From IMG/VR virus record IMGVR_UViG_3300046777_002520, positions 1 to 64,000 of that record: a stretch of 64,000 nt of DNA, one strand, 5' to 3'. This document shows, in pieces, positions 117 through 7,284 of the stretch (positions are counted from its first letter, which is position 1; every line of letters begins with the position of its first letter). The position numbers and the translations under genes are program-made. The notes under the pieces were generated by a model. The model had not been told where the DNA came from and searched no databases. It worked only from the letters and a program-made list of their open reading frames with translations. This DNA comes from a virus.

Positions 117-166
117 GGCGAGGTTTGGTGAGGCACGATGTGGTGTGTCTCGGTCGGGCGCGTCTT

Positions 167-267
167 TCCAAGGTTACCGATCACCGAGTAGAAGTGTTTA
201 AAAAACACACCAGAGTGCAACTCTCTGGCGGTGATATGCTTCCTTAACTGGAAGTAGTTGGTTGTTG
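167..267 (+). repeat. Structured constant repeat, copy 2
   Basis: Same as copy 1 but with compensatory stem changes GTGTT/AACAC and CCAGAG/CTCTGG. Confidence 0.95.
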
Positions 268-327
268 GGCGGGGTGGGGCTCGTAGTGGCAAGGTCTGGC
301 GAGGCGTGTCGAGTTTTGGCGCGTCTC

Positions 328-428
328 TTCAAGGTTACCGATCACCGAGTAGGAGTGTCTGAAAGACACACCAGAGTGCAACTCTCTGGCGGTGATTTAC
401 TTCCCTAAGTGGAAGTAGTTGGTTGTTG
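328..428 (+). repeat. Structured constant repeat, copy 3
   Basis: GTGTC/GACAC and CCAGAG/CTCTGG stems; last hairpin is TACTTCC-ctaagt-GGAAGTA. Confidence 0.95.
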
Positions 429-483
429 GGCAGGGTATGGCACGTCGCGGTCGGGCGGGTCGCGGTTTGGCGCGACGCGGTGC

Positions 484-3281: not shown

Positions 3282-3644
3282 ATGATCACAGACGACAAAC
3301 AGCTGAAGACCACTTTGGCAAAGTGGCAACAGACCCATTACAGGTTTCACGAGGAGAGGTACAAGGCAAAGAAAGAACAGCTGCGTAAGGACTACGAGAA
3401 AATAGTCGTGTCCTTGAAGCAGTACTGGGAAGAAAACAAGAAAAAGCTGAAAGGCCTGAAGTGGACCAACTATCTGTTTGAAAAGATGTTGACCTCCTGT
3501 CCTACAGCCGTGCTGCGTATGCATGTCGCTGACAGCATCCATGAAATTGAAGATTTCCTGAGAGGAGGCTCCGGTGCCGAACTGGTGCGTAAACGAGCTA
3601 ACAATAAAGGGAAAAAAGAAAATAGTCCAGAAGCTGAAGCGTAA
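3282..3644 (+). CDS. Hypothetical protein
   Basis: Start moved to ATG 3282 after the AGGAG RBS; overlaps the next gene by 71 nt. Confidence 0.65.
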   Translation: MITDDKQLKTTLAKWQQTHYRFHEERYKAKKEQLRKDYEKIVVSLKQYWEENKKKLKGLKWTNYLFEKMLTSCPTAVLRMHVADSIHEIEDFLRGGSGAELVRKRANNKGKKENSPEAEA

Positions 3645-4314
3645 GGTAAGAACAGACGACGTGTATCTGGACTTTGAAAAAATAGTACCAACGCCAGAGT
3701 CGATAAAGAACACGCCGTCTAGCAGCATCTGCAACGTCAGGCTTGCGTTGTTCGGGACCGATAAACAGGTCGAAGAACTGATCGACTCGCTTTTGAAAAC
3801 AACCGAAGGCGAGACAGCCGAAACAGTTGAGTACAAGCAGCACATCCCTGAAGACGTAGCCAGGGCCTACCCAGAGCAAAACCTGAAGGCCTTATGGCTA
3901 ATGTTTCGGCGCTACGAACACTCGCACTTATTGGATGACGCCGACCTGAAAGAAGGTATACGCGGCTACGAGCAGCTGGCCAACAAGTTCAACCACAATC
4001 TGCAAGCGCACGGCTTTACCAACTGGTACGACTGGCGCTGCGCAAATTGGGGAACAAAGTGGAATCTGGACAGCAGCACGACTCGTGTGTTTGAGGAGCG
4101 AGAAAACGGCTTGGCTCTACTCAAGTACGGTTTCGACACAGCCTGGAGCCCTCCTGAGGCTGTCGTAAAAGAACTGGCTAAGCGGTACCCGGAGCTGGCT
4201 ATACAGCTGAGGTACTGGGAGGGCGGCATGTGCTTTCAGGGCCGACTAAGGCTCAGGGGCGAAAAAGTTTACGAAGACAGGACCTGGAAATACTCGGGAT
4301 CAAAGGGAGGTTGA
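3574..4314 (+). CDS. DUF1281/YubB ferredoxin-like family protein
   Basis: MPNWC.N.L.I.G start; WYDWRCANWGTKWN and FDTAWSPP motifs; GAGGAGG RBS. Confidence 0.85.
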   Translation: MPNWCVNELTIKGKKKIVQKLKRKVRTDDVYLDFEKIVPTPESIKNTPSSSICNVRLALFGTDKQVEELIDSLLKTTEGETAETVEYKQHIPEDVARAYPEQNLKALWLMFRRYEHSHLLDDADLKEGIRGYEQLANKFNHNLQAHGFTNWYDWRCANWGTKWNLDSSTTRVFEERENGLALLKYGFDTAWSPPEAVVKELAKRYPELAIQLRYWEGGMCFQGRLRLRGEKVYEDRTWKYSGSKGG

Positions 4315-5698: not shown

Positions 5699-5771
<73 letters not shown>

Positions 5772-6565: not shown

Positions 6566-6793
6566 ATGGACACAGAAAATAACGAATACAAGTCTGGCCT
6601 GATGCTAACACGCAAGGTAGGCCAAAAAGTTATGCTCATGATTGGAGAGGAGAAAATATGGATCACGTTGGAACTAATAAGAAAAAACAACAAGGCTGTG
6701 TCCCTCAGGTTCAACGCATCGGACAAAGTCGCCATCTTCAGAGGTGAACTGCTGGATAACGGAACAGACGAGTACTTCGTTTACGAAAAATGA
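6566..6793 (+). CDS. csrA: CsrA/RsmA-like carbon storage regulator
   Basis: LMLTRKVGQKVML.IG...I.ITL....V.L.F.A...VAIFRGEL matches the CsrA pattern. Confidence 0.75.
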   Translation: MDTENNEYKSGLMLTRKVGQKVMLMIGEEKIWITLELIRKNNKAVSLRFNASDKVAIFRGELLDNGTDEYFVYEK

Positions 6794-7284
6794 ACATTTT
6801 CATCCTGGACAGGGACACGCAGCTGTGCGCCAGGTATCACCTGGACAAGCACGTGGTGAAGATGCCGCTTGAGTCAGCCCAGCTGCTTTGCACGGCTGTG
6901 CTGGCTCATGGCGGTACTTCGGAATACAAGCCAGCGCACAAGAACCATCCCTGCGCCATCTGGGCAAGGGAGACACAGGAGAACTTCCTGTGGCTGGTAG
7001 ACCTGGGCATAGAGCTATGCCACGAGTATCGACTCAGGTACGGCAAGATCCACAAATGCCTCAAGGTTATCAACAACTGCTTCAGAGTAGCGAAGCTGAT
7101 TCCGTCTGGTGGGCTTACGCCTTTTGCCCAAGCCATGCCAGACAAGTACAAGGCCAAAGACCCTGTCGTAGCCTATAGGGCCTACTACCTTGGAGACAAG
7201 AAAAGCATGGCCTCATGGAAAGACAGGGAGGAACCGGAGTGGTGGGTAAATGTCGAGTCACAACAAGATAGTCAAGTTGTTTGA
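6790..7284 (+). CDS. Pyrimidine-dimer DNA glycosylase / T4 endonuclease V-like protein
   Basis: MNIFILD, DKHVVKMPLESAQLLCT, HKNHPCAIW, EY..RYGK.H motifs. Confidence 0.85.
   Translation: MNIFILDRDTQLCARYHLDKHVVKMPLESAQLLCTAVLAHGGTSEYKPAHKNHPCAIWARETQENFLWLVDLGIELCHEYRLRYGKIHKCLKVINNCFRVAKLIPSGGLTPFAQAMPDKYKAKDPVVAYRAYYLGDKKSMASWKDREEPEWWVNVESQQDSQVV

Follow-up and report, generated by a model that had tools for sequence, protein, structure and literature searches.

Three tracts of 5-nt units near the start of the window (the whole stretch analyzed here, the opening 64,000 nt of an IMG/VR virus record of 191,966 bp) are very probably the guide segments of vrRNAs belonging to a phage-encoded VIPR (Viral Interference Programmable Repeat) system. 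We assigned the locus to VIPR because it joins a repeat array to adjoining vipr and vap homologues and a conserved tail, and because related loci carry a code in which 1 nt of the target is skipped (skip 1); all of these were seen directly.

VIPR is a CRISPR-like system of RNA-guided DNA silencing described in 2026 preprints (10.64898/2026.04.26.720920, 10.64898/2026.04.26.720927, 10.64898/2026.10.15.759431). Its parts are a ~20-kDa RAMP-like protein (Vipr), an accessory gene (vap), and vrRNAs made up of 9 to 16 GGYNN units and a structured tail (10.64898/2026.04.26.720920). In the Vipr filament, one protomer sits on each unit, GGY is flipped into pockets, and NN pairs with DNA by skipping every third base, usually the codon wobble (2026 VIPR preprints). 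For the SUSP1 and P. fulva systems, the skip-1 code was established through searches of pangenomes, competition for binding, repression of GFP, and cryo-EM (10.64898/2026.04.26.720920). A further hallmark of VIPR systems is the expression of vrRNAs, their processing to RNAs of about 100 nt, and their copurification with Vipr.

Repeat tracts, tails, and ends of the array

A tandem unit of ~161 bp is present in 3.5 copies at positions 1 to 600. It carries three complete + strand tracts of 5-nt units, at 117 to 166, 268 to 327, and 429 to 483, and a fourth tract that is interrupted by the record ends. The order on the + strand is tRNA-Thr, four units each consisting of a hairpin and linker, a tract, and a ~57-nt tail, then the terminator at 554 to 583 and ORF 604 to 1266. 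The features are as follows.

G000 191859 to 191930: tRNA-Thr(tgt), adjoining the 5′ part of tract 0
1 to 25, + strand: 3′ end of vrRNA tract 0, GGTct GGTgt GTCtc TTCaa GGTta (sequence read)
29 to 85, + strand: vrRNA tail copy 0 (outer stem and covariation)
86 to 116, + strand: inter-unit hairpin GCTTCC-TTAACT-GGAAGT and G/T-rich linker GTTGGTTGTTG
117 to 176, + strand: vrRNA 1 repeat tract, 8 variable units (ga tt ga ac gt gt tc cg), ending in the near-constant 3′ units GGCgc GTCtt TCCaa GGTta
180 to 236, + strand: vrRNA tail copy 1 (outer stem and covariation)
237 to 267, + strand: inter-unit hairpin and linker, copy 2
268 to 337, + strand: vrRNA 2 repeat tract, 10 variable units (gg gg tc gt aa ct ga gt ga tt), ending in the near-constant 3′ units GGCgc GTCtc TTCaa GGTta
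341 to 397, + strand: vrRNA tail copy 2 (outer stem and covariation)
398 to 428, + strand: inter-unit hairpin and linker, copy 3
429 to 493, + strand: vrRNA 3 repeat tract, variable units ag at ac gc cg gg gc tt, ending in the 3′ units GGCgc GACgc GGTgc ATCaa GACt
497 to 553, + strand: vrRNA tail copy 3, the last (outer stem and covariation)
554 to 583, + strand: intrinsic terminator of the array, 8-bp stem GTCCGTAC/GTACGGAC followed by TTTTTTGTTT
604 to 1266, + strand: vipr gene, encoding a 220-aa RAMP/Cas7-like protein (profile, fold, phrog_4652)
1272 to 1802, + strand: vap-like accessory gene, encoding 176 aa (phrog_15946; conserved neighbor of vipr)

Each unit opens with G, has G/T/A at position 2 and a pyrimidine at position 3, and closes with two variable bases. 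A first-pass annotation had written the tracts as a constant trinucleotide plus NN, and all 36 of its listed units were recovered as written by direct reading and a script parse. Position 1 was G in 36/36 units, as it had stated; position 3 was C or T in 35 (the single exception, also anticipated, being GTA); and the NN pairs TA, TG, CA, and CC were absent, as claimed, from all 36. Position 2 was G in 25 units, T in 9, and A in 2. That the NN vary held up as well, but not over the 10 to 12 units per tract that had been counted as variable. The final listed units, GGCgc GTCtc/tt, are nearly constant between copies, and the truly variable part comes to about 8 to 10 units per tract. Past these units, the 5-nt register goes on for another 2 to 3 that do not differ between copies (TTCaa GGTta, followed by CCGAT of the tail), and each tract has 12 to 14 phased units. 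The partial tract 0 reported at positions 1 to 15 is present as a remnant, while the tract itself continues from the other record end. The absence of TA and TG had been further taken to mean stop-free codons, an argument that is weak when set against related arrays, where these two pairs account for 9.6% of 3,043 NN (0/36, P ~0.03); TAY, TGY, and TGG are in any case sense codons.

When both strands of the 191,966-bp record were scanned for 8 consecutive phased G-[GT]-[CT] units, the only matches were these tracts; chance is therefore excluded, and the periodicity is real. The NN vary between copies and between related phages, with scaffold and tail retained. A block of ~26 nt that includes an unusual GTC scaffold unit was common to guide 2 and two guides of a relative whose Vipr is 83% identical, which shows that guides are inherited, with later divergence.

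Directly after all four tracts lies a conserved element of ~57 nt. It folds as a three-way junction in which two hairpins are enclosed by an outer stem of 7 bp (ATCACCG/CGGTGAT). In a comparison of seven copies taken from this phage and two relatives, the outer stem was invariant (7/7), and three inner pairs carried compensatory changes on both sides with pairing kept. Terminator-like scores for the inter-unit hairpins with their G/T-rich runs were weak, and each hairpin may be a processing signal or a leaky terminator; the sequence fits equally a hairpin that ends one RNA and one that starts the next. The array is closed by the strong intrinsic terminator at 554 to 583, and ORF 604 to 1266 starts 20 nt further on.

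The array spans an assembly break, and tract 0 is incomplete. The 5′ part of this tract (hairpin, linker, and GGCgg) lies at the opposite end of the record, which reads ...GTTGTTGGGCGG right after tRNA-Thr(tgt). The record ends most likely reflect assembly breaking in the repeat, and the scaffold of the closest relative has a run of N at the corresponding place. This bears on whether the tracts could be a DNA-level feature with no RNA role, such as bent DNA or DNA prone to form G-quadruplexes where packaging or replication takes place close to the ends of the record, which we consider extremely unlikely. A GG every 5 nt could form two-tier quadruplexes, and the array is indeed located at the ends of the assembled record. 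However, such a feature would not account for the strand-specific order of tRNA, covarying tails, and intrinsic terminator, the ends are most likely an assembly artifact, and the arrays of relatives occur at varied positions adjoining vipr. Among 80 IMG/VR loci encoding Vipr relatives, arrays (runs of at least 9 units) were on the same strand as vipr in 72 and on the opposite strand in 1.

Other searches of the array region were negative. An Rfam scan of positions 1 to 700 with E values up to 10 returned no hammerhead or other ribozyme and no family match; the best match was CRISPR-DR63 on the inter-unit hairpin, which was below threshold (18.4 bits versus a gathering score of 37; E = 4.6). 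A 15-mer scan of IMG/VR with the tail core gave 50 matches, all attributable to chance and none of which extends, and blastn of the array against cultured phages gave no match. Another idea was that the tail resembles a tRNA and is a substrate of RNase P. ARAGORN made no call on it, the inner-hairpin loop differs in the related locus L062, and a cut there would part tract from tail; the idea is kept only as a speculative lead. Separately, ARAGORN calls a 90-nt "tRNA-Ala(ggc)" at L067:9850-9939, overlapping the 3′ end of the vrRNA array in a 61%-identity relative; the call has a canonical T-arm (CCTGGGTTCGATTCCCAGG) and may be a tRNA-like array cap. In the phage studied here, tRNA-Arg(tct) (1845 to 1919), tRNA-Ile(tat) (1999 to 2073), and tRNA-Met(cat) (5699 to 5771) surround the VIPR locus along with tRNA-Thr(tgt). 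The Arg and Ile tRNAs decode codons that are often rare in hosts.

The Vipr homologue, its neighbors, and its relatives

On the alignments obtained, the product of ORF 604 to 1266 is a Vipr homologue. A single-sequence search matched SUSP1 Vipr (PDB 36pp; E = 0.0018) over the thumb and G-loop, and a profile of 32 homologues searched against the PDB had "SUSP1 Vipr protein" (36pp) as its sole match (E = 1e-8), covering chain residues 4 to 181 of 202. The cryo-EM preprint names H17, R138, D177, W178, and R179 of SUSP1 Vipr as G1/G2/Y3 contacts, with W178 stacking on G2. By sequence alignment only, these correspond to H45, R160, E199, H200, and R201 of the protein encoded here. H45 was retained in 31 of 32 relatives and R160 and R201 in all 32; position 199 was E in 31 and D in 1, and position 200 was W in 23 and H in 9, the window's Vipr having H. 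The thumb hairpin is at residues 142 to 163, and the G-loop, GFAVGIGEHRPE, is at residues 192 to 203. The top Foldseek matches to an AlphaFold (AF2) model of the protein (pLDDT 85) were Csm3/Cas7 backbone subunits (best scores, probability of 1.0 and E down to 2.6e-6), and the predicted fold is accordingly described as Cas7/Csm3-like. By analogy with SUSP1, we infer that the protein binds one GGY per protomer pair and presents NN for pairing, although the similarity to SUSP1 Vipr is remote and mechanistic details would be carried across a large distance.

ORF 1272 to 1802 belongs to the phage family phrog_15946, for which no function is known, and is conserved downstream of vipr in relatives. 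Its product was 26 to 29% identical (E down to 9e-20) to the vap products encoded at six other loci; similarity to Rep3/RPA (TM of 0.37 to 0.40) gave a weak hint of a winged-helix fold. Three further genes were also conserved in the loci of relatives: one for a 246-aa protein at 3574 to 4314 with a DUF1281_C/Api92-like ferredoxin-like domain (PF18406; E = 9e-10), one for a CsrA-family protein at 6566 to 6793 (PF02599; E = 6e-7), and, after the CsrA-family gene, one for a pyrimidine-dimer glycosylase-like protein at 6790 to 7284 (PF03013). Cas1 (PF01867) was absent from the 192-kb record in a search whose controls were positive.

From the SUSP1 and P. fulva work, a sequence of events can be proposed for this locus. 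The + strand would be transcribed from tRNA-Thr to the terminator at 554 to 583, and the transcript would be cut into units consisting of a repeat tract and a structured 3′ tail. Vipr protomers (ORF 604 to 1266) would polymerize along the tract from close to the tail onward, one for every 5-nt unit; protein pockets would take up each flipped-out G-G/T-Y triplet, with the two NN bases presented for pairing. The filament would then pair with double-stranded DNA, reading NNxNNx with one target base skipped per unit, and the resulting gapped R-loop would silence transcription of a competing mobile element. The vap-like protein would assist.

A total of 530 proteins in a large protein collection were related to ORF 604 to 1266 at E values of ≤0.001. 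Relatives in cultured phages (35 to 41% identity) were found in Gordonia phages ODay and UmaThurman, in ~27 Mycobacterium smegmatis phage records, and in one cyanophage, all of them annotated as hypothetical. These phages offer tractable hosts in which to test this Vipr clade.

Most related loci have "staggered" arrays downstream of vipr-vap, in which runs abut with a 1-nt overlap at GGCAG|GCGAG. The two closest relatives both carry arrays at the corresponding place, with tails of the window's family but other NN. The relative with 83% identity has the same layout as the window (tRNA-Thr, hairpin, tract, and tail) with other NN. In comparison, the relative with 80% identity (L062:5120-5885, identical in L063) has an uninterrupted staggered array of ~760 nt with about 13 runs, joined at the same GGCAG|GCGAG junction and followed by a single terminal tail of the window's tail family. 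Array architecture therefore changes between close relatives. T at scaffold position 2 (G-T-Y) is common throughout the clade and makes up ~18% of units in loci that have W at the stacking position. We considered whether H200 in place of W explains T or A at scaffold position 2, and set this aside on finding that loci with H average more G2 (P = 0.06).

The skip-1 code and the search for targets

The code was tested at the level of the clade with 276 distinct guides and skips of 0 to 3 against 1.45 Mb of sequence (this genome plus 82 related loci, with arrays masked), using one shuffled guide per guide as a control. Matches at or above 95% occurred with skip 1 only, and no shuffled guide reached 90%. 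Three skip-3 matches were at or above 90%; two were artifacts, namely, unmasked array remnants of the sister loci L117 and L120, and the third (L093 to L097; 18/20) was not array sequence and was probably due to chance. Guide L109:11155-11214 matched the vap genes of six other loci (L102:7640, L081:11288, L078:10861, L111:10852, L112:10882, and L125:10849) at 21 to 23 of 24 informative positions with skip 1. These matches are in frame over GLIRAVVAIYT, the skipped base being the wobble, and L109's own vap differs at the matched site (GLIKAVVALYS). Likewise, guide L129:11192-11251 matched the codons of the Vipr G-loop (VGVGEWRPE) at L089:2710, in frame and with skip 1, at 21/24 positions. Both the wobble-phased, one-base-skip code and VIPR-against-VIPR targeting were thus independently reproduced, by computation, in a Vipr clade other than that of SUSP1.

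These results bear on the central proposal of the first-pass annotation, which took the NN for a non-contiguous DNA guide with one target base skipped per unit and that base falling on the codon wobble. The proposal was essentially right and is already known as the VIPR mechanism. It is supported for this locus because of the protein, the tail, the accessory gene, and the clade-level targeting: guiding by NN is the published VIPR code, and the Vipr, the vap homologue, the tail, and the arrays place the locus within VIPR; a skip of one base is the published rule and the only one to reach 95% with clade guides; and wobble skipping is part of the published code and recurs in the in-frame matches of the L109 guide on vap genes. 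The peptides that had been decoded from the three guides are candidate readings only.

Our first idea had been a TRAP-like binding RNA with free spacers, which was dropped on the literature and on protein tests. Bacillus TRAP reads 11 (G/U)AG triplets separated by 2 to 3 free bases. In its general form, the idea is that the tracts serve as decoys or assembly sites and are bound by a ring-shaped or helical protein that recognizes only the constant triplets, with the NN unconstrained and uninformative. A constant triplet plus a 2-nt spacer in 10 to 14 units does resemble a TRAP site, and the window's own guides had no target above chance. Yet free spacers are not expected here because the NN of related loci match the vap and vipr of other loci, at 21 to 23 of 24 positions, in frame, and with skip 1 only. 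Moreover, no TRAP homologue (PF02081) was detected in the phage genome, with the positive control detected in B. subtilis, and the adjoining protein is a Vipr/Cas7-like RAMP rather than TRAP. We regard the protein-site explanation as highly improbable and the reading of the tracts as VIPR guides as the better one.

For the window's own VIPR guides, no target stood out. Searches of the phage's own genome with skips of 0 to 3 gave no self-target, the best sites matching 15 to 18 of 20 to 24 positions, within the range of shuffled guides; an absence of self-targeting by VIPR guides has likewise been reported (10.64898/2026.04.26.720920). The 82 related loci held no match for these guides. The annotation had expected gapped patterns to be enriched over shuffled-NN controls, and they were not: exact 9-unit patterns of guides 1 to 3 had 1, 0, and 1 matches in total in IMG/VR, compared to 17 and 0 for shuffled-unit controls, and chance predicts about 1 to 2 matches per pattern. 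Two sites were rejected as chance level, namely, a guide 2 match in L065 (antisense in rusA on a contig of 41% GC, with the skipped base at codon position 1) and a guide 3 match in L066 (at the N terminus of terS, where the wobble is the base skipped).

Searched with all 12 units, guide 2 had no match in metagenome and genome collections. Its 10-unit pattern had perfect matches in three unrelated families (riboflavin synthase, the same rusA phage, and one Pseudomonas site), with the riboflavin synthase matches coming from Myxococcota and one alphaproteobacterial MAG. Read in frame with the wobble skipped, positions 268 to 317 spell the ribE motif GGSVNLEVDL (L147, L149 to L153, and L156; high-GC bacteria), and ribE was the sole in-frame perfect match found for the 10 variable units of guide 2. 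We nevertheless treated the perfect matches of this guide as chance because about one chance family is expected and the other guides did not converge on those genomes. At the size of the database, about one in-frame family would be expected by chance; in the genomes concerned, sites for guides 1 and 3 were unconvincing (at best 15/16, in a radical-SAM-like gene), and guide 3 matched no better than a reversed control. In 401 Pseudomonadota genomes, the homologous guide of a relative phage matched unrelated genes and not ribE. Silencing of a host riboflavin synthase gene by guide 2 thus has no support beyond chance.

The lack of targets could also suggest a decaying or re-purposed VIPR array, in which Vipr is still loaded and the guides either have no targets or act as decoys that titrate a competitor's Vipr. 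Decoy vrRNAs are documented, with satellites titrating a competitor's Vipr by means of solo vrRNAs (10.64898/2026.10.15.759431), and the scaffold here is degenerate, with 11 of 36 units not being GG. In addition, the closest relative has only one or two vrRNAs at the site. Against decay, neither vipr nor vap is disrupted and both are conserved, the tails show strong conservation together with compensatory changes, and the frequency of G-T-Y units in W-bearing loci of the clade indicates that degeneracy is normal here. Missing targets say little and are expected, given 16 to 20 informative bases, a requirement for exact matches, and incomplete collections. Decay or re-purposing is therefore very unlikely, and an intact VIPR array is the reading that we carry forward.

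Relation to known VIPR, CRISPR-Cas, and TRAP systems

VIPR experiments so far concern two type II systems from phages of Enterobacteria and Pseudomonas. To these, the locus contributes a distant and intact case from an environmental phage of 192 kb, one whose tail folds differently, whose array lies upstream next to a tRNA, and whose scaffold is relaxed (G-K-Y), and the comparison set adds independent computational support for the skip code and for VIPR-against-VIPR targeting in another Vipr clade. What goes beyond the preprints is modest (the three-way-junction tail, the upstream tRNA-adjacent array with its hairpins, the G-K-Y scaffold, and the switching of architecture); its value is as comparative material on tails, processing, and scaffold specificity, and it opens no new question.

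It is conceivable, though doubtful, that the lineage is an undescribed VIPR sub-type defined by a three-way-junction tail, an array launched from tRNA-Thr, and architecture switching. Under such a scheme, each vrRNA may end in a 7-bp acceptor-like stem and a T-arm-like hairpin, and maturation may proceed by host tRNA-processing or terminator-dependent routes; the routes known so far are the vrRNAs' own tails, staggered cuts, and hammerhead ribozymes (2026 VIPR preprints). Tail-interspersed and staggered forms may switch among phages whose Vipr proteins are 80 to 83% identical.

VIPR has been classified into seven types (10.64898/2026.04.26.720920). Like the type II systems of SUSP1 and P. fulva, the window has a phage-encoded, small (~20- to 25-kDa) RAMP-like Vipr followed by an accessory gene, 9 to 16 GGYNN units in which the NN are hypervariable, a separate 3′ tail, structured and conserved, on each vrRNA, conserved GGY-contact residues, and no self-targeting. 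It differs in that the protein similarity is only remote (profile E = 1e-8), the whole array is upstream of vipr and starts directly after tRNA-Thr, a hairpin and G/T-rich linker separate the units, and 31% of units have T or A at scaffold position 2. Its tail forms a three-way junction of ~57 nt, compared to a ~40-nt pseudoknot in SUSP1, the equivalent of SUSP1 W178 is H, and the genome is that of a 192-kb phage. The staggered vrRNA arrays already described (Fig. S18 of 10.64898/2026.04.26.720920) have the 1-nt overlap at GGCAG|GCGAG found in most of the Vipr relatives, whereas the tracts in the window do not abut and each has its own tail and hairpin.

The backbone proteins of class 1 CRISPR-Cas (Cas7/Csm3) have an RRM fold with a G-loop and thumb, as predicted for the Vipr modeled here, and, as in published VIPR, they oligomerize along the guide RNA with bases flipped out periodically. 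In contrast to CRISPR-Cas, the window has no CRISPR repeats (the best Rfam match, E = 4.6, being below threshold), and Cas1 is missing from the genome. VIPR has a period of 5 nt, with 3 bases sequestered and 2 pairing, compared to 6 nt in CRISPR, with 5 pairing, and only VIPR reads its target with a 1-nt skip. TRAP sites in the Bacillus trp leader RNA resemble the tracts in having about 11 constant triplets with 2-nt spacers. The triplets are G-K-Y here and G/U-A-G there, however, the phage genome lacks a TRAP protein, and in the clade to which the tracts belong the spacers carry targeting information.
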